Of a stretch of DNA of 64,000 bases, positions 1,427 to 47,444 are shown piece after piece. Each line of letters opens with the position of its first letter. The stretch's first letter is position 1. The translations under genes were made by a program, and so were the position numbers. Under the pieces are notes generated by a model that did not search any database, had not been told where the DNA came from, and was given only the letters and a program-made list of their open reading frames with translations. Source of the DNA: Patescibacteria group bacterium (GTDB taxonomy: Bacteria; Patescibacteriota; Patescibacteriia; UBA9934); assembly GCA_038064675.1 (NCBI GenBank), contig JBBTSM010000005.1, forward strand, positions 4,686 through 68,685, read 5' to 3'.

Positions 1427-2484
1427 CCCATTGCCTTCTTAAACGCATCGACGAATGGAATGCCTTCCGGCCTCACGCCGTTCTTCATTGCAAGGTAATA
1501 GCTCACGAAGCTTCCGAATTGGAGCACTTCGCCAACTTCTTCGAGCGGCTCCTTTCCACTTGTCACATAATCAACCACAGCGATCCCCTGTTCTTCAAGC
1601 ATATCGGCCGTCACGTTCACTCGCTTCTGTGTTCGAACATTGTACAAGCTTGACTGAATGAGGAACGCGACCATCTTTGGTGCGAATGTTTTTGGATGCG
1701 TGAGACCTTCGAGCAAATGGTGATTCAATTCTGGAAGCGCGAAGTATGTTGCGAACTGTTTTGCGGTTTCATTAATCGAATTTGCCAACACATGCGCAGT
1801 ACCAACCAGATGCTCTGCGGCAATAATAATCACCGCAGAATCCGCAAGCGAGCGTGCAACCGTTTTTGCGGGATTTTCTTTTGTTGGAACATCCACCGCG
1901 CAAGAGTCGATCACCTCCCCCATTGCAATGCGCATGAGGTCGATTTCTGCGCCGGTGATTTTCAAAAGCCTTGCGCGTTCGAGCATCCCGAGCAATCCCG
2001 CAAGCGAGAATCCCGTTCCAAGACGTGGCTGTTTTGCGAGCTCGCCAGGATCAAACTGATACATTGGCCATTTGTGCTTTGCCGCGCGCTTTGCCAAATC
2101 GCCACCTGCGGCGATCGCAAAGATCATCGCACCGCGTTTCACCGCATCGTCGCCAGCTGCCAGGACTTCCTCTGTTGTTCCCGAAAAACTCGAAAGCACA
2201 ACAAGCGTCTTTTTATCCACGAATCCTGGAAGCGAGTATCCGTTCACGATAGTAACGGGAACTTTCAATCGATCAAAAAATGCTGTCGTCAACATGTGTG
2301 GGCCAAGTGCCGAACCGCCCATCCCAACAATAACCACCGATGTTGCACGCTTGAACGCCTCAGGAAGATCCAAATCTCGTGTCTCCTCCCATCCAATACG
2401 AATCTGCTCCGGGAGGTGCTCAATGCCGAATCGGATGTCCGAAGTATCTAATGTCGCGTACGTCTTATGACTGTCGAGATTCAT
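1420..2484 (-). CDS. bifunctional phosphoglucose/phosphomannose isomerase (SIS-domain PGI/PMI family)
   Basis: ORF 1420..2592; SIS motifs VIVGMGGSALGP, VLSSFSGTTEEVL; start moved to ATG at 2482-2484 (MNLDSHKTY...). Confidence 0.8.
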   Translation of the reverse strand: MNLDSHKTYATLDTSDIRFGIEHLPEQIRIGWEETRDLDLPEAFKRATSVVIVGMGGSALGPHMLTTAFFDRLKVPVTIVNGYSLPGFVDKKTLVVLSSFSGTTEEVLAAGDDAVKRGAMIFAIAAGGDLAKRAAKHKWPMYQFDPGELAKQPRLGTGFSLAGLLGMLERARLLKITGAEIDLMRIAMGEVIDSCAVDVPTKENPAKTVARSLADSAVIIIAAEHLVGTAHVLANSINETAKQFATYFALPELNHHLLEGLTHPKTFAPKMVAFLIQSSLYNVRTQKRVNVTADMLEEQGIAVVDYVTSGKEPLEEVGEVLQFGSFVSYYLAMKNGVRPEGIPFVDAFKKAMGK

Positions 2485-2493
2485 AGTGCTTCC

Positions 2494-2597
2494 GCATTTG
2501 GTCGATTTTGGGCTTGCGTCATCGTAAACTCGCTCAACGTACCGAGAAGTACGCCTCGCGAGATTTACTCGCCGCGCACCCAAACTCGCCACAAATG
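2494..2597 (+). repeat. structured repeat family copy A (conserved core with covarying helices)
   Basis: gcatttggtcgattttggg...cgtaccgagaagtacg...cccaaact...caaatg; shares core with copies at 40799-40919 and 46917-47040; compensatory tttGgg/ccCaaa vs tttCgg/ccGaaa. Confidence 0.5.
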
Positions 2598-2653
2598 AGA
2601 AAGCCCTGTATCAGTCGATAGTATTCCAGTGTTTTCACGAAATAGCGAGAAAC

Positions 2654-3853
2654 TTATTCACGCGCAGAAATCCGTGCAGTTATAGTAGCACGGCCAGAAA
2701 TATCGCCGATAAGAACGGCGCCAACGATCTTTCCTTTGCGATAAAACTCTTCTACCGATGCGGATTCTGTTGCAACGATCTGTTTCACCTCGTCCGCCGC
2801 TTTCCGATCAACGTCGCCGATGAAGACGATGTGCATGTCAAAGAGATGCGTTGCGTAACTTGAAACGAGATTAAACGGCGCACGTTCGCCGCAGATCGTC
2901 TTCGCAACGGCACGACCTTGCGACTGCGCATTCATCCAGTTGCCGTACACCACATGGCGCGCAACATTTGTATCGAAGAATTCGGCGCAATCACCAATCC
3001 CGTACACCGATGGATGTGCAGTCTCGAGATATTCATTGACGACGACACCGCGTTCGATCTCTATTCCACAATCGCGATAAAACGACTGATCGGCATGCAT
3101 ACCAATTCCGATACCAAGAATCGAGCACGGGATCTCGATGCCAGACGAAAGCTTCACGCCGGTCACATCGCGCTCCCCGAGAATTTCTGGCTCAGCCTCG
3201 TTCGCATGCAATACTGTCCCGCCATCAATAGCCTTCTTCGCAAGAACGTCCTGTGAATGTGCAGAAAGAGTCGAAGACCAAAATCCTCGGCCACGCATCA
3301 CGACATCGCAAGAAATGCCGAAATGTTTAAAAATATTAATGTATTCCAATGCGATGAACCCGCTTCCGTACACCACGCCGCGGCGGTCGCTCTCCGATCG
3401 CATGAGCGTTTCCTTCAAGAGGCCAACGAGTTCATCCGCGTCATCGATGCCGCGAAGATAGGAAACGCCACGAGGCTCGCCGCCGATAACATTCAATTCG
3501 CCGCCACCCGCAAGAATCAATACATCAAACGGGAGTTCGCGGCCTTCCGACGTGCGAACAAATCGATTCGGAATATCAATCAACTCCACACGAATACCGG
3601 CCATCATCTCAATGTGATTCTTTTCGTACCACTCCCACGTTTTCAAAAAAACTTTCTCCCGTGGAATCTTTCCCTTCACATAATGCGGCAACAACACTCG
3701 TGAATACAGCGGATGGTGTTCTTGTTCAAGAATCGTAATCGCAACATCGGCATTCTTTTTGCGGATCTCTTCGGCTGCGGTTGTTCCCGCGATTCCACCA
3801 CCAAGAATGAGAACGCCTTCATTTCGCCCATTTTCGGCTTGCTCCCTCAGCAT
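2654..3853 (-). CDS. FAD-dependent pyridine nucleotide-disulfide oxidoreductase (ferredoxin/rubredoxin-reductase or NADH-oxidase-like)
   Basis: GVLILGGGIAGTTAAEE dinucleotide fold, second NAD fold VVYGSGFIALE, GIGDCAE; start moved to ATG at 3853 (MLREQAENG...). Confidence 0.8.
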   Translation of the reverse strand: MLREQAENGRNEGVLILGGGIAGTTAAEEIRKKNADVAITILEQEHHPLYSRVLLPHYVKGKIPREKVFLKTWEWYEKNHIEMMAGIRVELIDIPNRFVRTSEGRELPFDVLILAGGGELNVIGGEPRGVSYLRGIDDADELVGLLKETLMRSESDRRGVVYGSGFIALEYINIFKHFGISCDVVMRGRGFWSSTLSAHSQDVLAKKAIDGGTVLHANEAEPEILGERDVTGVKLSSGIEIPCSILGIGIGMHADQSFYRDCGIEIERGVVVNEYLETAHPSVYGIGDCAEFFDTNVARHVVYGNWMNAQSQGRAVAKTICGERAPFNLVSSYATHLFDMHIVFIGDVDRKAADEVKQIVATESASVEEFYRKGKIVGAVLIGDISGRATITARISARE

Positions 3854-3942
3854 GATCGACGACGTACCAGGAAGTACGTCTTGACGATCCTGCCTCGGTT
3901 GCGCACCGAAACTGGTCTGAAATGAAAGCGTTCTCGTCATAC

Positions 3943-38165: not shown

Positions 38166-38257
38166 AGTGATATGCGGCGGAAAAATGGGCCGCGGATAAA
38201 TAGTGAAAATCCCACGCCTCAGCATCGTATCACGATGCGAGAACGTGGGATGTTGTG

Positions 38258-39160: not shown

Positions 39161-40087
39161 ATGGCAAAGGCGCTGAAGGATTTGATGAGGGAATTTTGTG
39201 AGTATCTCGAAATCGAGCGAGGAAGAAGTGATAAAACGACGAAGAATTATGCGTTTTATCTCCATCGGTTTGCGGAATGGGCGAAATGGCCGAATCCGGG
39301 GGAGATTGAGCTGGAAATGGTACGAAAGTATCGTTTGTATTTGAATCGAGAAATTGCGGGGCGCGACGAAGAGTCGTTGCAGAAGAACACGCAAAACTAT
39401 CACCTCATCGCGTTGCGGGCATTTTTGAAATACTTAGCGAAGCGCGATATTAAGACGCTGTCTGCCGATAAGATCGAGCTCGCAAAACAAGGCTCGCGGC
39501 ATGTGACATTCCTTGAACCAGAAGAGCTGACTCGATTTTTAACCGGACCCGATGGCGACGACTCATTGGTGGGGCTTCGCGACAAGGCAATTCTTGAACT
39601 CCTGTTTTCGACCGGACTTCGAGTCTCCGAGTGTGCCGGACTCCGAATCGACCAGGTGAATTTGAAGCGAGAGGAGTTCACGGTGAAGGGAAAAGGGAGC
39701 AAGCATCGTGTAGTTTTTCTCGCCGACGACGCGAAGCGCGCGCTGAAGGCGTATCTCGAACGTCGTCGCGACGTTTCCGATTATCTTTTCGTTCGTCACG
39801 ACCGTGCTCGTCACAACGTCGAATCCCCCGCCCCGCTTACACCGCGCTCCGTTCAGCGCATCGTCGATCGTTACGCCCGTCTCGCCGGCATCACAAAGGC
39901 CGTTACTCCCCACACGCTTCGTCATACATTCGCGACCGATCTTCTTCGCAACGGCGCAGACATCCGATCGGTCCAATCACTCCTCGGGCACGAATCCATC
40001 ACAACGACGCAGGTGTATACGCACATTACTGATAAAGAATTGAAGCGCGTGTATTCAAAGTTTCATGGGAAACAGAACGTGAATTGA
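39161..40087 (+). CDS. tyrosine site-specific recombinase XerC/XerD family
   Basis: 308 aa; N-terminal SAM-like core-binding, catalytic R..HxxR..Y: HTLRHTFATDLL, LLGHESITTTQVYTH. Confidence 0.8.
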   Translation: MAKALKDLMREFCEYLEIERGRSDKTTKNYAFYLHRFAEWAKWPNPGEIELEMVRKYRLYLNREIAGRDEESLQKNTQNYHLIALRAFLKYLAKRDIKTLSADKIELAKQGSRHVTFLEPEELTRFLTGPDGDDSLVGLRDKAILELLFSTGLRVSECAGLRIDQVNLKREEFTVKGKGSKHRVVFLADDAKRALKAYLERRRDVSDYLFVRHDRARHNVESPAPLTPRSVQRIVDRYARLAGITKAVTPHTLRHTFATDLLRNGADIRSVQSLLGHESITTTQVYTHITDKELKRVYSKFHGKQNVN

Positions 40088-40132: not shown

Positions 40133-40600
40133 ATGACGAATCTGGTTCTGTATCTGATTGTTGCAGCGTGTGTTCTGCTCTGCGCGGCCGTGGCTATGCT
40201 GGTTTGGGCTCTTTTGTGGCTCAATCGTGTCACGCCTGTGGCGCTTGATGTCTGTGGTTCCCTTGGGGATCGGTGTGGAAACCTCCCTCTGAGTGGGGAC
40301 GAATCATCGATCAAGCTCGGGGAGCATTCGGATTCTCCTCGGGGGTGTTTTGGGAACGAGAGTCATCGCGTCCTGTACTGGCGAACCGACTGGAGGGCTT
40401 CCCGTACTGGCGGATCGCTCGTAGAGACGATTTCGGTTGCCGAAAGCGGGCGTGAGGGGAACTTCCGTGTGACTTTCCGGGATGGGCAGATGGTTCAGTG
40501 GAATGAGTCTGGGCTTCCCGGACGGCCGCCGTCGGACACGACGACGGGAGCGTTGTTGGGGATTCTTATTTGCGTTCGACGGGCCGCCGGGTTCCGCTAG
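40133..40600 (+). CDS. hypothetical GC-rich membrane protein (155 aa)
   Basis: ATG start; N-terminal TM LVLYLIVAACVLLCAAVAMLVWALLWL; about 60% GC. Confidence 0.4.
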   Translation: MTNLVLYLIVAACVLLCAAVAMLVWALLWLNRVTPVALDVCGSLGDRCGNLPLSGDESSIKLGEHSDSPRGCFGNESHRVLYWRTDWRASRTGGSLVETISVAESGREGNFRVTFRDGQMVQWNESGLPGRPPSDTTTGALLGILICVRRAAGFR

Positions 40601-40685
40601 ATCCGGTCCCATGACGTGCTGAGCGCGGTCCCTGTGGCCGCGCTCGTGTTGTTTGAAATTGAATCTTATTCATATAGTAGAAAGC

Positions 40686-40714
40686 AAAAAACCTCCCGAA
40701 AGGGAGATTTTTTG
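40686..40714. terminator. bidirectional hairpin terminator
   Basis: aaaaacctccc-gaaa-gggagatttttt. Confidence 0.45.
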
Positions 40715-40715
40715 A

Positions 40716-40790
40716 TGGGGCGACTAGAGGGGATCGAACCCTCGTAGCCGGGACCACAACCCGGTGCTCTACCATTGAGCTATAGCCGCC
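40716..40790 (-). tRNA. tRNA-His (GTG), G-1 encoded, C73 discriminator
   Basis: reverse complement gGCGGCTATAGCTCAATGGTAGAGCACCGGGTTGTGGTCCCGG...GAGGGTTCGATCCCCTCTAGTCGCcCCA; anticodon loop TTGTGGT. Confidence 0.8.
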
Positions 40791-40798
40791 ATGTTTGA

Positions 40799-40919
40799 GA
40801 GCGTCCCCAGTTTGCCCATTTTCGGCTTATGTCATCGTAAACTTGCTCATCGTACCGAGAAGTACGTCTCGCAAGCTTTGCTCGACATGCACCGAAACTG
40901 ATCTAAACTGGGAACGCTC
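40799..40919 (+). repeat. structured repeat family copy B (between tRNA-His and tRNA-Arg)
   Basis: 15-bp closing helix gagcgtccccagttt/aaactgggaacgctc; core attttcgg...cgtaccgagaagtacg...caccgaaact. Confidence 0.5.
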
Positions 40920-40995
40920 TCACTGATAACGCATGCGAGAATACCAGCTTTTTTTCGCTGTTGCAAGACGGGAATGCCGTGTATTCGGCGTAGAT

Positions 40996-41072
40996 TGGTG
41001 CTCCGAGGTGGAATCGAACCACCGACCTTGGGCTTAGAAGTCCCCTGCTCTATCCAACTGAGCTATCGGAGC
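40996..41072 (-). tRNA. tRNA-Arg (TCT), anticodon stem with two purine-purine mismatches
   Basis: GCTCCGATAGCTCAGTTGGATAGAGCAGGGGACTTCTAAGCCCAAGGTCGGTGGTTCGATTCCACCTCGGAGCACCA; perfect acceptor/T arms. Confidence 0.65.
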
Positions 41073-41193
41073 GCAAGCCTACGCAGAACGCGGTGGGATC
41101 TTAGCATTCCTTTGCGCTTTTGGAAAGGAGAATTTGGCTAAGCCTTCATGGTTTTTTGGCGTCTGGTGGAATTTCCGATACACTTTGCGCAAT

Positions 41194-43827
41194 ATGATGA
41201 CGGCTCAAAAGACCTTTCTAATCTTGGACGGAAACGCATTACTTCATCGTGCGTGGCATGCGGTTCCGCCGCTTACAACACAGGACGGCCGCGTGGTGAA
41301 CGCGGTGTACGGCTTTGCGATGGTTATTGAGAAGATGCGTTCCGAGCTGAAGCCAGACTTCATGGCCGTGGCATGGGATTTGCCTGGCGGAACGTTCCGA
41401 CATGAGGAATACGCGGAGTATAAAGCGACGCGAGAGAAGAAGGCGCAGGAGCTGTACGACCAGATTCCGATGATTCAGGAACTGTTGAAGCCGTACGGGA
41501 TTCCTTCGCTTTCCGTTCCTGGATTTGAAGGTGATGACATCTTGGGAACGATTAGCGCGATGAACGAGGCTAATGGCGTGAAGACGCTGATCGTGACTGG
41601 GGATCTCGATGCCTTGCAACTTGTGACGCCGATGACGCACGTGGTCTTTTTTGTGAAAGGATTGTCGCAAACGAAGCTCTACGATAACGCCGCAGTGAAG
41701 GAGCGTTACGGATTGAATCCTTCGCAACTCATCGATTACAAAACATTGGTTGGTGATACGTCGGATAATCTTCCGGGCATTCGCGGAATCGGCGAAAAGG
41801 GCGCGGTTGAACTCATCAATACCTTTAAGACCGTTGATGGGATTTTTGATGCAATGAAGCGCGGAGATCTTCCGGAGAAGTTCGTGAAGAAATTCGAAGA
41901 TCAGGAAACACATGCCGCACAGATGAGGCGAATGGTGACGGTGGTTCGCGACGTTCCACTCAAGGGATTTTCACGCGACGATGCAAAAATTCAGCATCCG
42001 AATCTTGAGGCGCTTCTTCCGATTCTGCGTGATTTCGAATTCAAGACACTGTTGAAGAAGTACGAGGGAAAAGATGAGAAAGCCGATCGTGAAGCCCCGA
42101 TCGCGAAAAACGTCGCTCCATCAAGGGGCTCGTCAAAACGTCACGCTTCTCTTCCTGCCGGATCGCTGGCCGATCTCGAGCTTGATCGGATTGGTGTCGT
42201 TATTCAGCCAAAGGAAAAAGATCTTTTTTGTGGATCAATCGCCGCTATCGCGGTTACCGATGGTCGAAATGTTGTGTCGATGAATGATCCTGTCGCGGAT
42301 GACCTCAAGAAGATCGTTGCAATCATCAGCAAGGCGAAGACGATCATCGCACATGACATTAAGGCCATTCTGCACATCATCGATGATCTCGGAATCAATC
42401 TTGCGGACGTGCTTCGTCGTCCATTTTTCGACACACAGGTTGCGGCATATCTTCTTGCGTCCGGTGATCGCGAATTTGGGTATCGAGAGATCGTTCAATC
42501 CACACTTGGTGCATCGATTTCGGTGGATGCGAGTGCTCAAGAAATGATTGGTGCACTGTTGCCGCTTGCGACTATCCTTGATCGGAGACTTGCTGATGAA
42601 GGAATGAAGAAACTCGCAGACGAGATTGAGATGCCGCTCATCTCTGTACTGTTCGCGATGGAAAAAGATGGATTCGCGGTCGATAGCAAGCATCTCGCAA
42701 CGTTGTCGAAGAAGTTCGATGATCGACTGCAGGAACTCACGAAATCGATTCATATCGATGCTGGCCGTGAATTTAACATCAATTCCCCATCGCAACTCGC
42801 CGATGTCCTATTTATCGATCTCGCGATTCCAACAAAGGGGATCAAAAAGACGAAGAGTGGATTTTCGACTGCTGCGCCAGAACTTGAGAAGATCGTTGAT
42901 GCTCATGCAATTGTGAACAAGATTTCGGAGTACCGAGAACTTGCAAAACTGAAGGGAACGTATGCAGACACATTGCCGAAGTTGGTCAAGGCTGACGGCA
43001 GAATTCATGCGCGATTCAATCAGTGCGTTGCGGCAACGGGGCGATTGTCGGGATCGGATCCAAATTTGCAGAATATTCCGATTCGATCTGACCTTGGACG
43101 CGAAATCCGAAAAGCATTCGTTGCGGCGCCGGGTTGTGTGTTGCTGAGCGCCGATTATTCGCAGATTGAACTTCGATTGGCGGCATCGATCGCAAAGGAC
43201 CGATCGTTTATTGAAGCGTTTACCGACGGCGCAGATATTCATAAACGTACCGCGGCAGAAATGTGGAGCATTGACGAGAATGATGTGACGAAGGAGCAGC
43301 GATATGCGGCGAAGGCGATTAACTTCGGTATTCTGTATGGTATAGGTGCTCGAGCGTTGGCGAAGAGCGCGAACGTTCGTTTTGAAGAGGCGAAGGAATT
43401 CATTGATCGCTATTTCATGGCGCATCCAGGAATTCGATCCTATCTTGATGCAACAAAGCTTCAGGCGCATGCAGATGGTTTTGTGACTTCCTTTTTTGGA
43501 CGTCGACGATACCTGCCTGATGTGAATTCCGGTATGCCGCAACTTGTTGCTGCCGCAGAACGCATGGCAATCAATATGCCAATTCAGGCAACGCAAGCCG
43601 ACATTATTAAGATGGCGATGAACGCAGTTGCGGAATATCTCCGAGCGTCCAAGATTGACGCACGGATGATTGCGCAGGTTCACGATGAGCTTGTCTTCGA
43701 AGTTCAGAAGTCGGACGCCGAAGAGCTTGGAAAGAATATCCGATCAATCATGGCGTCGATCGCGGAATTCGATGTTCCGTTGGTTGTGGATGTCGATACT
43801 GCGAACTCTTGGGGTGACATGGAATAA
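41194..43827 (+). CDS. polA: DNA polymerase I (5'-3' exonuclease + polymerase domains)
   Basis: FLILDGNALLHRAWHA (5' nuclease), pol motifs DYSQIELR, KAINFGILYG, VHDELVFE; ATG 41194 (ORF opens 41134). Confidence 0.9.
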   Translation: MMTAQKTFLILDGNALLHRAWHAVPPLTTQDGRVVNAVYGFAMVIEKMRSELKPDFMAVAWDLPGGTFRHEEYAEYKATREKKAQELYDQIPMIQELLKPYGIPSLSVPGFEGDDILGTISAMNEANGVKTLIVTGDLDALQLVTPMTHVVFFVKGLSQTKLYDNAAVKERYGLNPSQLIDYKTLVGDTSDNLPGIRGIGEKGAVELINTFKTVDGIFDAMKRGDLPEKFVKKFEDQETHAAQMRRMVTVVRDVPLKGFSRDDAKIQHPNLEALLPILRDFEFKTLLKKYEGKDEKADREAPIAKNVAPSRGSSKRHASLPAGSLADLELDRIGVVIQPKEKDLFCGSIAAIAVTDGRNVVSMNDPVADDLKKIVAIISKAKTIIAHDIKAILHIIDDLGINLADVLRRPFFDTQVAAYLLASGDREFGYREIVQSTLGASISVDASAQEMIGALLPLATILDRRLADEGMKKLADEIEMPLISVLFAMEKDGFAVDSKHLATLSKKFDDRLQELTKSIHIDAGREFNINSPSQLADVLFIDLAIPTKGIKKTKSGFSTAAPELEKIVDAHAIVNKISEYRELAKLKGTYADTLPKLVKADGRIHARFNQCVAATGRLSGSDPNLQNIPIRSDLGREIRKAFVAAPGCVLLSADYSQIELRLAASIAKDRSFIEAFTDGADIHKRTAAEMWSIDENDVTKEQRYAAKAINFGILYGIGARALAKSANVRFEEAKEFIDRYFMAHPGIRSYLDATKLQAHADGFVTSFFGRRRYLPDVNSGMPQLVAAAERMAINMPIQATQADIIKMAMNAVAEYLRASKIDARMIAQVHDELVFEVQKSDAEELGKNIRSIMASIAEFDVPLVVDVDTANSWGDME

Positions 43828-43829
43828 GT

Positions 43830-44822
43830 ATGATTTTGCTTGTTTACGGTGACGATGCATTTCGCGTGAAGGAGCGATCGCGAGAGTTTGTTGAGAAGTT
43901 TGCAGAGAAATTCGATCCGACGCGGATGAATATCGACGAGTTTGTGTTTGCGAAGAAGGACGATGTGAGTTTGGCGCGTGTCGCGGAGGCGATTGCGGCC
44001 TCTCCGTTTCTTTCCGCGAAGCGCATGGTTCGTGTTGATGGAATTTTTTCGACCGTTACGACCAAACCGGATGCGGAGCCTTGGGCTGCTATGCTTGAAC
44101 GCGTTCCCGAGTCAACGATTTTGGTGTTGGTTGATGCATCGTCAAAAGAAAAGGTGGAGAAGACTGAGGTATGGAAACGCGTTTCGGTAATGAAAGATGT
44201 TCATAGCTATCCATTACCTGCGTTATCGGGATCGGAACTCCAGACGTGGATCGCGAATCGAGCAAAGACGCATGGCGCGGTCATGGTTCCAGCGGTGAGC
44301 TCGGCGCTCGTCGATCGTGTTGGGAATGATTCGTGGAGGCTAGAAACGGAAATTGGGAAGCTTTCGGCGTATGCTGGTGATGCGCCGATTTCGGAAGAGA
44401 TGATCGCGAAACTTGTTTCGAGCGAGTATCGGGAAGATATCTTTGCGCTGATGGATGCAATGAGTGCGGATCGGGCATCGTTTGCGCTGAAGAAACTGCA
44501 TGAGGAACGGGTTGCTGGAGCTGATGAATTCCCGTTGTTTGGGATGTTGATGCGGCAGATTCGATTGTTGCTCCAAGTTCGATCGCTGTGTGATGAGTCA
44601 CCGACTGTTGGAAAACAGGATGTCGCAAACGCTTTGGGTTTGCACCCATTTGTTGCGCAAAAGGTGCTCGGAGAGGCCCGTCGTCGATCGTTTGATCGAA
44701 TGAAACAGTGGCACGGTTTGGCGTCGGATCTAGATTTTGCGATGAAACGAGGCCTTGCGGCAGATGTGGCGGTAGATCGGTTGGTTGCGGCGATGCTTGA
44801 CGATTCTAGTATACTTCGCTAA
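43830..44822 (+). CDS. holA: DNA polymerase III delta subunit
   Basis: 330 aa; LVYGDDAFRVKERSREFVEKF start typical of HolA; immediately follows polA. Confidence 0.7.
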   Translation: MILLVYGDDAFRVKERSREFVEKFAEKFDPTRMNIDEFVFAKKDDVSLARVAEAIAASPFLSAKRMVRVDGIFSTVTTKPDAEPWAAMLERVPESTILVLVDASSKEKVEKTEVWKRVSVMKDVHSYPLPALSGSELQTWIANRAKTHGAVMVPAVSSALVDRVGNDSWRLETEIGKLSAYAGDAPISEEMIAKLVSSEYREDIFALMDAMSADRASFALKKLHEERVAGADEFPLFGMLMRQIRLLLQVRSLCDESPTVGKQDVANALGLHPFVAQKVLGEARRRSFDRMKQWHGLASDLDFAMKRGLAADVAVDRLVAAMLDDSSILR

Positions 44823-44861
44823 TATTCGCTCATTCTTATTGGGAATTTCTTCACGATATCT

Positions 44862-45164
44862 ATGCCAAATCTTCGAAATGCTAAGAAAGCGTTGAATCAG
44901 AGCCGCGTTCGCGCCGTTCGCAATGCAAACGTGAAGGGTCATATCGATACGATGCGTCGCTCGTTCCGTAAGCTTTTGGAAGCTGGAAAGATCGAAGATG
45001 CACAGAAATTGGTTCGTGAGCTCGACCAGGCAATGGACAAAGCGGTCACAAAGCATGTCTTCAAAGCGAACACCGCAGCTCGTGTAAAGTCCCGCACCAT
45101 GCTCGCCTTGAACAAGGCTGCTGCAGCGCCAAAGAAAGAAGTTGTCGCAAAGAAATCAAAGTAA
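44862..45164 (+). CDS. rpsT: 30S ribosomal protein S20
   Basis: MPNLRNAKKALNQSRVRAVRNANVKGHIDTMRR... Confidence 0.9.
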   Translation: MPNLRNAKKALNQSRVRAVRNANVKGHIDTMRRSFRKLLEAGKIEDAQKLVRELDQAMDKAVTKHVFKANTAARVKSRTMLALNKAAAAPKKEVVAKKSK

Positions 45165-45169
45165 ATTAA

Positions 45170-45203
45170 AATCGCCACGCAAATGCGTGGCGATTTTTTT
45201 ATT
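45170..45203. terminator. bidirectional intrinsic terminator rpsT/rmuC
   Basis: aatcgccacgc-aaat-gcgtggcgatt followed by ttttttt. Confidence 0.7.
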
Positions 45204-46347
45204 CAAGAATCGGCCTTTCGATGCCAGGGGTTTCGATGATGTCTTCAGCTGGTCCGTCGGTAAGCTTCACAACGTCCTTGCTCATCTTCTTGAGTTCATT
45301 GCTTGAGTTGTTGAACTGATTCACCACGGTACTGACGGCATTGCCGAGTTTGCCGTGATATTCTGCGTAGGTCCTGAAATGCTTTCCAAGATCGGCCACT
45401 CGCTTAATGATATCTTGTGCCTTCTCTTCGATTTTCATTGCATGGAGGGCCTGGAGAACAGTTTGAAGATATGCGAGGAACGACGTTGGTGACACGATGA
45501 TGACGTGATATTTGCTTGCGGCGCGTTGGATAAGATTCTCGTTGTCCTCTTGTGTTGAGCCGATTTTGTTTACGAGAAGATCGTAGTAAATGGCTTCATG
45601 TGGAATGAACATGAACGCGAAATCCATCGTTCCCTTTCCTGGTTGAATATATTTTGATGTTTCAAGAATGCGATTTTTTAGATCGTTCACAAATAACTTT
45701 TCAAGTCGTTCCCGTTCTGTAGCGTCATCGGTTTCGGAGATACGGTTGTAGTTTTCAAGTGAAAATTTCGAATCAATCGGGATAATTTTATCCTTAACAA
45801 AGACGACAGCATCCGGGATCAGATCTTTATCTGCCTCATCTTTGCCGAGGCGATACTGCATCGCGTAACTTCCTGGCTCCATTGCGTTTTTCAGGAGCGT
45901 TTCAAGATAATATTCTCCTAGAATTCCTCGATGTTTTGGATTTTTCAGAATGTCTTGGAGGTTTCTGAGCTGTGATGAGAAATCGAGAACCTGCTTATTC
46001 GTTGCATCAAGAGTTGTGAGTTTCTCGGTGACGGCCTGGATGATCTTCGATGTCTCCGCGAATTGCGCGCTAATATTTTTTTGAGCGAGGTCCTGTTGCG
46101 AGAGAAGTGTTTTTTGTGAATCGGCAAGACCTCGATACAGTTGATCGTTCACTCGGTCGAGCTTTATTTGAACTTCTTGGCGTTGTTCGGTTGTGGCACG
46201 CAATAATTCCTCGCGAATACGGGTAATTTCGATAAGAAGATTTTGCGACGCCACAGAATCGCCTGAGTTGCGTTTTTGAAACCAGAAAAGTGCTCCTATC
46301 ACTGCGCCGAAACCGATAATGAGGATGATTGCGGTGGATGTTTCCAT
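45199..46347 (-). CDS. rmuC: DNA recombination protein RmuC
   Basis: 382 aa; N-terminal TM, long coiled coil, C-terminal RmuC nuclease-like domain (GKGTMDFAFMFIPHEAIY). Confidence 0.8.
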   Translation of the reverse strand: METSTAIILIIGFGAVIGALFWFQKRNSGDSVASQNLLIEITRIREELLRATTEQRQEVQIKLDRVNDQLYRGLADSQKTLLSQQDLAQKNISAQFAETSKIIQAVTEKLTTLDATNKQVLDFSSQLRNLQDILKNPKHRGILGEYYLETLLKNAMEPGSYAMQYRLGKDEADKDLIPDAVVFVKDKIIPIDSKFSLENYNRISETDDATERERLEKLFVNDLKNRILETSKYIQPGKGTMDFAFMFIPHEAIYYDLLVNKIGSTQEDNENLIQRAASKYHVIIVSPTSFLAYLQTVLQALHAMKIEEKAQDIIKRVADLGKHFRTYAEYHGKLGNAVSTVVNQFNNSSNELKKMSKDVVKLTDGPAEDIIETPGIERPILE

Positions 46348-46447
46348 AGAATTTTATTGACGCGACGTTGCAGCGATACGTATACTTCTCTCGCGTTCAT
46401 ACAGTATATCATGAATCAATGATATATTTTACGACACATAGAGCCGC

Positions 46448-46524
46448 GACCTCGTAGCTCAACTGGATAGAGCAGGTCCGTCCTAAGGACAAGGTTGCAG
46501 GTTCAACTCCCGCCGAGGTCACCA
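46448..46524 (+). tRNA. tRNA-Arg (CCT), with G27:A43 and A51:C63 non-canonical pairs
   Basis: GACCTCGTAGCTCAACTGGATAGAGCAGGTCCGTCCTAAGGACAAGGTTGCAGGTTCAACTCCCGCCGAGGTCACCA. Confidence 0.6.
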
Positions 46525-46642
46525 TTGGTCATTTAAACAACGAATTGCGTTGTCGCCACTCCGGTGCTCGCGCGCTGTACGTCTATGTGCAGCTTACTTC
46601 GCTCCTCGTGGCTCCTTGTACTTCGCCGTTTAAATGACCAAT
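46525..46642 (+). repeat. long hairpin element directly 3' of tRNA-Arg (possible divergent member of the structured repeat family)
   Basis: perfect 15-bp closing helix attggtcatttaaac/gtttaaatgaccaat enclosing ~88 nt; shares ttggtcattt with copies A/C. Confidence 0.4.
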
Positions 46643-46659
46643 GATATTTAGGGAGTCTA

Positions 46660-46679
46660 ATTGTTTCACGTGAAACAAT
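46660..46679. promoter_or_regulatory. 20-bp perfect palindrome ATTGTTTCACGTGAAACAAT (site 1 of 3)
   Basis: self-complementary; repeated at 47089-47108 and 47221-47240. Confidence 0.4.
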
Positions 46680-46840
46680 CGGAAAACGTTTTAAAAAATT
46701 GAATCGAAATTGATGGAAAACTGGCTAAGTTCGTCATATACAAGGAAGATTTCGAGGACCGACGAGGCGTACTTTATGTGTACGGTGAGGGGGCCTGGAG
46801 AAATCTGACGCAGTAGATGACGAACTTGGGCCGGTTTTCC

Positions 46841-46916
46841 GGGCTTGTAGCTCAGTTGGTAGAGCGCTGCATTCGCATTGCAGAGGCCAGCGGTTCGAAT
46901 CCGCTCAGGTCCACCA
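46841..46916 (+). tRNA. tRNA-Ala (CGC) with G3:U70
   Basis: GGGCTTGTAGCTCAGTTGGTAGAGCGCTGCATTCGCATTGCAGAGGCCAGCGGTTCGAATCCGCTCAGGTCCACCA. Confidence 0.85.
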
Positions 46917-47040
46917 CAAAACACTGTCATTTGGTCTATTTTCGGTTTGTTGCGTCGCACATTCGCCCAACGTACCGTGAAGTACGTTTCGCGAACTGTG
47001 TTCCTAGCACACCGAAACTGGCAGCAAATGACAGTGTTTT
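46917..47040 (+). repeat. structured repeat family copy C (immediately 3' of tRNA-Ala)
   Basis: perfect 17-bp closing helix caaaacactgtcatttg/caaatgacagtgttttg; core attttcgg...cgtaccgtgaagtacg...caccgaaact. Confidence 0.55.
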
Positions 47041-47088
47041 GTATTTTATCCGCTTTTACTAACGAAATTCATGGTTAAACAAGGCCCA

Positions 47089-47108
47089 ATTGTTTCATGT
47101 GAAACAAT
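47089..47108. promoter_or_regulatory. palindrome site 2 (ATTGTTTCATGTGAAACAAT, central mismatch) inside 32-bp extended palindrome 47083-47114
   Basis: ggcccaattgtttca-tg-tgaaacaattgggcc. Confidence 0.4.
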
Positions 47109-47220
47109 TGGGCCTTCTACACATTACTTTACGGGAAAACGTCGCAAAAATCGTTCCGAATCAAGCGACTTCGGCGCTGGAATAGGTGAAGAATCATTTG
47201 CCTTTTTTGTTGAAGTTATG

Positions 47221-47240
47221 GATGTTTCACGTGAAACAAT
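47221..47240. promoter_or_regulatory. palindrome site 3 (TGTTTCACGTGAAACA core)
   Basis: gatgtttcacgtgaaacaat. Confidence 0.4.
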
Positions 47241-47444
47241 TTGCAGGTGTCGGCTTGGGTGTTGATAAGCGACAATATCCGCGCCAGTATTTGTCTACAC
47301 CAGGCTACACGATAGATATAGTTTGTACTTATCACGTTTTATAAACAGGGTTATCCATCTTTTATCCACAGTTTACGAAAGTTAGCCATGTTTTTCGATG
47401 CTTGTTGACGCCTTTTTGTGTTCATCATCGTGTATCATTGTGTT

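Follow-up and report, generated by a model that had tools for sequence, protein, structure and literature searches.

What is the long palindrome that recurs beside tRNA genes in a 64,000-nt stretch of Patescibacteria DNA, and why has it been kept there? The stretch (‘the window’) covers positions 4,686-68,685 of contig JBBTSM010000005.1 of assembly GCA_038064675.1, and an original prediction, made from its letters, had pointed to three copies of a structured repeat with nested, covarying helices. The analysis described here places those copies in a family of 125-129-bp interspersed palindromic repeats, so far encountered only in Candidatus Uhrbacteria (Patescibacteria, also termed the candidate phyla radiation, CPR), with dozens of copies per small genome, in which selection acts on the fold of one strand. 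The reading that we favour, to which we give about an even chance, is that of an old, mostly vertically inherited repeat, comparable to miniature inverted-repeat transposable elements (MITEs) or to REPINs, that has been retained where it is co-transcribed as a self-contained leader hairpin.

Genomes of the CPR/Patescibacteria are tiny and tightly packed, and a repeat that takes up the greater part of many spacers and brackets many tRNA genes is unexpected there; no comparable interspersed repeat family for this group was found in Rfam or in the searchable literature. The repeat also appears to provide ribosome-binding sites, start codons and stop codons, its fold is kept across species, and the ~90 sequences now in hand form a data set with very clean covariation and conserved non-Watson-Crick motifs. 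If the hairpin is read by a protein, or is inserted by a new polar mechanism, it would add to knowledge of RNA processing or DNA mobility in a poorly studied group.

Copies in the window and size of the family

The three copies first proposed (A, B and C) are all present: they can be aligned across ~125 nt, each forms a single long hairpin, and each hairpin is far more stable than expected (z = -4 to -9 on both strands), with no shuffled sequence reaching an equal stability. The count, however, was too low. Five instances of the apex motif CGTACCNNGAAGTACG were counted in the window where 0.74 would be expected, which exposed a fourth copy (D), and a covariance model (CM) finds exactly four strong matches (112-141 bits, E = 1e-25 to 1e-33), all in one common orientation. 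Besides these four canonical copies, two diverged hairpins lie beside tRNA genes (E2, the clearer relative, and E1, the weaker). The unit itself measures 125-129 nt and thus runs slightly beyond the coordinates that had given a size of ~105-125 nt. The six elements are as follows (where two folding energies are given, the first is for the sense strand and the second for its complement, ‘sense’ being the better-folding strand of the family and the complement of the strand first drawn).

2484-2608, minus strand: copy A; 139.9 bits; -59.8 vs -45.6 kcal/mol
3807-3935, minus strand: copy D; apex motif matched with two mismatches; 112.1 bits
40797-40921, minus strand: copy B; 141.2 bits; -65.8 vs -56.6 kcal/mol
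46523-46643, minus strand: E1, a 121-nt long hairpin that begins inside the CCA of tRNA-Arg(CCT)
46715-46840, plus strand (sense): E2, a 126-nt hairpin and diverged relative, ending 0 nt before the 5' end of the plus-strand tRNA-Ala
46917-47041, minus strand by family polarity: copy C, a 125-nt palindromic element; 124.1 bits

The closing helix of copy C is perfect, as had been claimed, and is 18 bp long rather than 17; that of copy B, for which 15 bp had been counted, consists of 9+9 bp flanking one mismatch. Copy D belongs to a 129-nt subfamily.

The search was then carried beyond the window. A gapped pattern made from the conserved blocks was scanned against a species-representative genome collection and gave 62 strict matches on 57 stretches, nearly all of them from metagenome-assembled genomes (MAGs) of Candidatus Uhrbacteria from lakes. 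These copy-bearing contig stretches, ~495 kb in total, carry L-numbers (L001 and so on) in what follows. A CM search for further copies, as the original prediction had proposed, was made with a model built from 61 copies and yields 90 copies in the 495 kb (~30 of them outside the search pattern), spread over ~ten Candidatus Uhrbacteria MAGs. The family behaves as a dispersed repeat that is gained and lost, in dozens per genome, rather than as a single-function RNA gene. The strict pattern has 0 matches in viral contigs, so the repeat is not a phage element.

The two diverged hairpins can be judged against this larger set. The model recognises E2 in the aligned orientation, here the minus strand, at 18.5 bits (E = 0.024); this hairpin folds to -63.2 kcal/mol on the plus strand and -48.1 on the minus strand (z = -8.5), its apex GAGGCGTACTTTATGTGTACGGTGAG agrees with those family apexes that bear a TG insertion, and its orthologous site in L046 (4284-4408) is a 120-bit copy. 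E1 scores 14.5 bits (E = 0.25), folds to -59.0 (minus) vs -51.2 (plus) kcal/mol (z = -9.4), and is matched by a sequence of 32 bits at the orthologous position L046:4454-4584; it is at best a distant relative of the family.

The expectation that no Rfam family would match was borne out by Rfam 15 at both stringencies: searches of the whole window at the gathering level return five tRNAs only, and a permissive search (E up to 10) over 40500-47300 finds nothing that overlaps B, C or E2. A tmRNA_permuted overlap on E1 (15.5 bits vs a gathering score of 47, E = 6.4) was rejected as noise. A search of the literature on palindromic repeats or MITEs in Patescibacteria or CPR found nothing relevant, and the family appears to be undescribed to date.

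Four MAGs whose records are titled ‘uncultured Gammaproteobacteria’ also carry the repeat (L001, L002, L005, L026, L029, L037, L040, L055 and L057). Synteny with Uhrbacteria contigs, at a flank identity of 69-98%, holds for several of these loci, and the record labels look wrong. As a marker, the repeat can help to recognise Uhrbacteria contigs, of which several apparently stand under wrong labels in public records.

Selection on the fold of one strand

Every copy, a long and imperfect inverted repeat, folds as a single strand into an extended hairpin of ~46 pairs. The nested helices with compensatory changes described in the original prediction hold for the family at large; the strand on which they were drawn does not. 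In that first orientation, RNAalifold gives 38 pairs, 25 with double changes, at -39.7 kcal/mol, whereas the consensus of the reverse complement reaches -66.1 kcal/mol, with double changes at 32 of its 46 pairs. Copy by copy, the reverse complement is the better folded strand in 86 of 87 cases, by 13 kcal/mol (mean -63.6 vs -50.5 kcal/mol, p = 7e-16), the sole exception being copy C (-61.3 on the plus strand vs -53.4 kcal/mol). It also accommodates 397 G.U pairs, as opposed to 139 on the strand first drawn, together with tandem G.A oppositions.

On this sense strand, 96.5% of the cells in paired columns do pair, compared with 80.0% in column shuffles (none of 500 reached the observed value); pairing falls to 33-45% once the partners are slid by 1-3 columns, and the covariation score is 0.48 vs 0.17. 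Orthologous copies at the tRNA-Arg, tRNA-Lys and tRNA-Leu loci differ by 5-11 double changes, against 0-2 broken pairs. The change of UUUCGG/CCGAAA to UUUGGG/CCCAAA that had first been noticed in copy A is one case of a family-wide exchange, in which the pair concerned is CG in 56 copies, GC in 22, and never broken. These comparisons show that selection acts on the fold of one strand.

The conserved features of that fold are not confined to Watson-Crick pairs. An apex hairpin of the form CGUAC-UUCNNG-GUACG is conserved; U.G pairs are kept at columns 13/122 and 35/101 and a G.U pair at 58/78; a tandem G.A adjoins the apex stem in 75 of 78 and 78 of 78 copies; and further conserved G.A oppositions lie at columns 28/108 and 36/100, the former being shifted by one position yet kept in one subfamily. 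That the apex and CACCSAAAC do not vary in the first alignment follows in part from how the search pattern was constructed; among copies found by the model only, the apex closing pair covaries (C-G to U-A) and the loop is variable. The outer stem carries a hypervariable 6-7-bp segment.

The ends of the element obey the same rule. Terminal inverted repeats are present, in that the whole element is an inverted repeat with a terminal box nAGRAC...GTYCTn, and its outermost positions vary as base pairs (UA 30, GC 17, AU 14, CG 7). Because these terminal nucleotides covary as pairs and are not direct repeats, a target-site duplication, whether of TA or of any other sequence, was rejected, and filled/empty pairs of sites show no consistent one; the repeat is not a simple MITE with direct-repeat flanks, as the first description had held.

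Placement at gene boundaries and use of element sequence

An association with tRNA genes had been noted, with most copies said to lie right after them. In the window, four of the six elements do touch a tRNA, and two tRNA genes are needed to follow their positions.

40716-40789, minus strand: tRNA-His(GTG), found by ARAGORN and by Rfam; it begins 7 nt after copy B ends on the sense strand
46841-46916, plus strand: tRNA-Ala(CGC), bracketed by E2 upstream and C downstream, the same element end facing the tRNA on either side

Copy B follows tRNA-Arg(TCT) by 74 nt on the minus strand and stands directly ahead of tRNA-His, and the aligned-left end of copy C falls 0 nt past the CCA of the plus-strand tRNA-Ala. 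The remaining two canonical copies adjoin protein genes. Copy A, on the minus strand, begins 45 nt past the stop of the upstream oxidoreductase gene and its final base overlaps the ATG (at 2484) of a gene for a glucose-6-phosphate isomerase-like protein (bact-PGI_C; the product matches PF10432); copy D sits within the 5' end of the minus-strand open reading frame (ORF) 2654-3940. Sense copies thus stand upstream of bact-PGI_C (A), tRNA-His (B), the oxidoreductase gene (D) and tRNA-Ala (E2), and copies C and E1 lie downstream of tRNAs, antisense to them. The orientation shared by the copies in the window, which had been noted as holding despite the orientation of the neighbours, is indeed common to them but not independent of those neighbours: A, B and D are each just upstream of minus-strand genes, and C is the odd one out.

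Across the family, the sense 3' end is the precisely placed one. A co-oriented tRNA begins next to it in 25 copies, at a distance of 0-7 nt in 24 of these and of 22 nt in the remaining one, and five copies have it 0-1 nt from the CCA of a convergent tRNA, so that the tRNA association stands while its description as mostly downstream does not. In 31 copies a co-oriented ORF starts after this end (at 16 separate loci, no more than 15 nt away), and 25 copies have the stop codon of a convergent ORF there, often between -3 and +3. The sense 5' end is looser: upstream stop codons lie from -3 to ~150 nt away, divergent starts are never closer than 5 nt, and tRNA ends are tight to it in two cases only (5 and 12 nt). 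One defined element end therefore faces tRNA genes, by 30 vs 2, whichever way the tRNA is oriented. Of the 44 tRNA genes in the copy-bearing DNA, 32 are no more than 30 nt from a copy and 26 carry one at the 5' end, fractions that are biased since this DNA was chosen for containing copies. Orientation is co-directional with local transcription in ~63 of 84 copies; the other ~21 are antisense to both neighbours and retain the same strand asymmetry. A rule of orientation by replication strand was rejected, since orientations are mixed along one 212-kb contig.

Two loci illustrate the polarity. In L046, tRNA-Ala and tRNA-Arg are each bracketed by two elements with the same end toward the tRNA. 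In the spacer between tRNA-Gly and tRNA-Thr, two species carry unrelated, oppositely oriented copies (L025:4192-4316 vs L045:1004-1128), and in each species the same element end is tight on a tRNA end.

Neighbouring genes appear to make use of the element's own sequence. The sense 3' arm typically reads AAAUGAGGAAGUCCUA, with a Shine-Dalgarno-like GAGGA in the arm; in L030, smpB reads GAGGAAGTTCTACCTATG, so that its only Shine-Dalgarno-like sequence lies within the stem. When the arms were compared by eye, those with GAGGAA mostly precede ORFs and tRNA-adjacent copies bear other variable segments. Convergent stops often fall within 3 nt of the element end, and in those copies the terminal TAG or TGA of the element is the stop codon of the ORF. 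The reading frame of the oxidoreductase runs on through copy D: residue 43, where the Pyr_redox_2 domain begins, is encoded directly behind the element with no start codon in the gap, so that translation must start inside or before copy D, at ATG 3853 (within it) or ATG 3940 (2 nt before it).

Inheritance, mobility and competing explanations

Orthologous copies occur in 2-5 species, ahead of tRNA-Arg, tRNA-Ser and tRNA-Lys and behind tRNA-Ala and tRNA-Leu; they are separated by numerous double changes that preserve a pair and by few that disrupt one. Copy C, for example, has an orthologue after tRNA-Ala at L046:4083-4207 and a diverged one at L030:7693-7821. The presence/absence polymorphism with target-site duplications that the original prediction had proposed to look for was found in part, mostly as deletion remnants and with no target-site duplication. 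Two sites in the window lack a copy that a relative carries.

38185-38197, no strand assigned: empty site; a syntenic Uhrbacteria contig has a copy (L038:1185-1309), with flank identity of 80-86%
46439-46448, no strand assigned: site without a copy just upstream of tRNA-Arg(CCT); in L046 a copy lies 4 nt ahead of that tRNA

Several further presence/absence pairs were seen between MAGs, and at tRNA-Ser the copy carried by four other species is missing in L033. Most ‘empty’ alleles retain the gene-proximal arm or pieces of the core, with short direct repeats at the junction, and are therefore deletions. Gains have also occurred: near-identical whole copies lie at different loci of one genome (for example L038:2097, L007:7090, L009:5561 and L003:7606), so the full 125-nt unit, arms included, has multiplied. 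The idea that the outer arm is copied from the host flank at insertion was rejected as a general rule, because alleles left with an arm keep core pieces and junction repeats and because the arms of recent paralogues are identical. Two further candidates for polymorphism failed. The segment 37231-37369, opposite L038:2100-2224, holds no copy and consists of unrelated sequence with a short terminator-like hairpin, and contigs that encode the window's bact-PGI_C protein, tried as a source of strain polymorphism, merely end inside copy A.

At some orthologous sites related arms enclose different core subtypes, and some paralogues have identical cores and unrelated arms, a pattern which suggests that cores may be replaced by gene conversion.

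How the family might have reached this state can be outlined as follows. Past multiplication would have proceeded by a hairpin-recognising, probably single-strand, mode of transposition, the enzyme for which was not seen; later inheritance would have been mostly vertical. Copies would survive where they are harmless or useful, that is, with a promoter on one side and the first nucleotide of a tRNA or the initiation codon of an ORF on the other, or directly on a stop codon. There the repeat would be co-transcribed as a self-contained leader hairpin, whose 3' arm could supply a Shine-Dalgarno sequence and sometimes a start codon and whose terminal TAG or TGA could supply stop codons, and RNase P at tRNAs, with RNase III probably acting on the long duplex, would release or open the hairpin. 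Selection would retain a self-folded hairpin and its non-Watson-Crick motifs because an unfolded leader would hinder tRNA folding or ribosome binding, or because a host or element protein reads the hairpin, or both.

Several points weigh against this account. Transcription of the hairpin is deduced from gene order, and we infer the RNA nature of the sense strand, its handling by RNase P and RNase III, and the way in which the element transposed. Both G.T and tandem G.A are tolerated in single-stranded DNA as well, so that the strand signal is no proof of RNA. The spacing from Shine-Dalgarno to ATG ranges from 4 to 15 nt, and the role in ribosome binding therefore cannot apply to every copy. 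Upstream promoter matches are not enriched overall (11% vs 7% in shuffles). The 30-vs-2 end rule goes beyond mere tolerance and suggests a polar insertion mechanism; the ~21 antisense copies fit the life cycle of the element itself better than a local RNA function; and an approximate query, which makes for a weak test, found no IS200-like Y1 transposase in the 495 kb around the copies.

The promoter evidence is of a local kind. At several tRNA loci, reasonable hexamers of the -35/-10 type stand upstream of the hairpin, in L029 (TTGACG-17-TATATT), in L018 and L020 (TTGACC-17-CATACT) and, on the minus strand of the window, upstream of copy B (TTGCAA-17-TATTCT, 40966-40938); a sigma-70 scan of the copy B region gave nothing convincing on the right strand. 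A promoter inside or upstream of the element was rejected as a general rule, its scores barely exceeding those of shuffles, and such single-locus hexamers allow a weak inference only. A conserved GAGTGTATAAAC was also observed ~60-70 nt upstream of the tRNA-Arg copies (L033, L004, L017, L051 and L011), and GTGTATCAT at L030:6134-6142. Lying just upstream of the hairpin at unrelated loci, these may be the -10 region of promoters for hairpin and gene together.

The chief rival, which we regard as a serious if unlikely alternative, holds that the repeat is purely selfish, non-autonomous DNA of the REPIN or MITE kind and has no role as RNA: a transposase that recognises hairpins (HUH/Y1, RAYT-like or another type) would act on the repeat as single-stranded DNA and identify it by its strand asymmetry, conserved mismatches and apex, and the position at tRNA ends would come from polar insertion guided by structure or transcription. 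It accounts well for a strand asymmetry that is independent of neighbour orientation, the ~21 antisense copies included; for the end polarity, which reduces to one rule (the element inserts a few nucleotides 3' to a structure resembling an acceptor stem, within the same DNA strand); for the independent, opposite copies in the tRNA-Gly/tRNA-Thr spacer of two species; and for the near-identical copies at several loci of one genome and a clean filled/empty pair. REPINs, too, are hairpin repeats that are inherited vertically (PMC3116915; bioRxiv 10.1101/2021.07.10.451892). However, neither a transposase nor any repeated DNA of at least 200 nt common to loci of one genome was found in the 495 kb around the copies, most ‘empty’ sites are deletion remnants rather than vacant targets, and orientation is biased toward local transcription. 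A structured landing pad beside copies adjacent to coding sequences was rejected, as flank folding z-scores are alike on both sides. Orthologous copies older than the species splits keep 96% pairing by way of compensatory changes, and selection for mobility offers no explanation of that in copies that are fixed.

A second alternative, more tentative and rather doubtful, is a dedicated cis-acting RNA module of Uhrbacteria, placed before roughly every second tRNA gene and ahead of many mRNAs. A specific protein would read it through the invariant tandem G.A, the G.A mismatches and the apex loop, and would thereby govern how the RNA downstream is processed, stabilised or translated; in addition, or instead, an undescribed structure-guided insertion would join one defined end of the element a few nucleotides from the acceptor-stem end of tRNA genes, on either strand, without target duplication.

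Still less of the evidence suits independently expressed, trans-acting small RNA genes, each hairpin being a small RNA or guide-like RNA, and this we consider very improbable. The strand-specific structure with its conserved non-Watson-Crick motifs would be in keeping with such genes, the hypervariable outer-stem segment could in principle encode specificity, and RNase P cleavage of the tRNA downstream would free a discrete hairpin RNA; yet there is no space for a promoter or terminator of their own and the flanks are unconserved between loci, the variable segment is buried in perfect duplex, copy ends serve as start or stop codons of neighbours, and copies are lost by deletion without replacement. 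That the copies are transcription terminators or insulators halting read-through at gene ends is scarcely credible, in spite of their position at those ends (in some cases exactly at a stop codon or a CCA) and of a T-rich stretch after copy C, because most lie 0-14 nt upstream of the next gene with no space for a promoter behind a terminator, because the family has no general T-run after either arm, and because a terminator scan finds ordinary short terminators separately after the same tRNAs.

An old repeat, largely inherited vertically and kept as a leader hairpin, would have known counterparts. REPINs and REP sequences of Pseudomonas and enterobacteria, associated with RAYT transposases, are dispersed extragenic hairpin repeats of ~100 nt, present in dozens to hundreds per genome, which persist vertically and keep the hairpin despite sequence change (PMC3116915; 10.1101/2021.07.10.451892). 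The Uhrbacteria repeat is likewise a dispersed long hairpin, with dozens of copies per genome and orthologous fixed loci. A REPIN, however, is made of two inverted short REP palindromes and a free spacer, whereas the Uhrbacteria repeat is a single unbroken stem over all 125 nt, in which the apex hairpin and a tandem G.A are conserved and the internal loops are fixed; neither singlet REP-like units nor a RAYT was recognised in the 495 kb around copies. Polar abutment to tRNA ends is, to our knowledge, not a trait of REPINs.

Correia elements, the MITEs of Neisseria, are palindromes of 100-160 bp at gene boundaries that are co-transcribed, are bound or cleaved by RNase III as RNA hairpins, and can alter adjacent expression (PMC2649163). 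The Uhrbacteria repeat resembles them in its palindromic nature, similar size and gene-boundary placement but shares no sequence similarity with them, and it has neither their conserved 26-bp terminal inverted repeats nor their TA target duplication; instead, its outer stem contains a hypervariable segment and its terminal dinucleotides covary (TA/TA, GA/TC, AA/TT, CG/CG). Measured against MITEs generally, it displays terminal inverted repeats and presence/absence polymorphism but not target-site duplication.

Three further systems share individual traits with it. The ERIC (or IRU) sequences of enterobacteria are imperfect palindromes of 127 bp that occupy transcribed intergenic regions in either orientation and probably act as RNA hairpins; their sequence and hosts are unrelated, and we know of no report of their exact juxtaposition to tRNA ends or to start or stop codons. 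Rickettsia palindromic elements (100-150 bp) can sit in frame within ORFs, as copy D does at the 5' end of the oxidoreductase ORF, and beside RNA genes, but copy D is the only in-frame case in a family that is overwhelmingly intergenic. In the attC sites of integrons, structure is conserved while sequence varies, one strand folds, and unpaired or mismatched bases serve as recognition marks. In contrast to these, the Uhrbacteria copies are single and scattered at gene boundaries, no cassette arrays and no integron integrase context were found, the tyrosine recombinase near the copies has Xer-like domains, and the apex and core are conserved in sequence where attC centres are variable. The repeat is thus a new family within a known kind, the interspersed palindromic repeats, and what is unusual about it is the polar, nucleotide-precise placement at tRNA ends together with the invariant G.A motifs.

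Other features of the window and of the copy-bearing contigs were observed along the way. Near copies B and C lie an RmuC-family gene (45199-46347, minus strand) and the gene of the Xer-type tyrosine recombinase (39161-40087, plus strand), both probably housekeeping. A small palindrome, AATTGTTTCAYGTGAAACAATTG, occurs at 46655-46680 and 47085-47117, near the tRNA-Arg/tRNA-Ala cluster, and at the syntenic place in L046 upstream of tRNA-Ala; it may act as a short terminator or bind a protein. Two Logan contigs that encode the bact-PGI_C protein (L058 and L059) have their position 1 exactly in the apex of copy A. Such short-read contigs show that the palindromic repeat breaks assemblies, a practical warning for work with short reads.

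Some copies depart from the standard build. L054:5524-5597 is a 74-nt, internally deleted mini-copy without an apex, and at L048:4978-5185 the family arms and base surround an unrelated interior of ~130 nt, so that the outer stem can evidently host different interiors. In MAG CALRGY, the small palindromes GGTATGAAGTAAAGCGAAGCGCTTACTTCATACC and CCCCGCCCCTCGCGAGGGGCGGGG are nested inside copies and form a second layer of hairpin repeats, in the following places.

L035:3886-4011: CALRGY copy with nested palindrome
L044:1241-1386: CALRGY copy with nested palindrome
L044:4451-4619: CALRGY copy with nested palindrome
L048:6470-6651: CALRGY copy with nested palindrome
L054:6613-6779: CALRGY copy with nested palindrome

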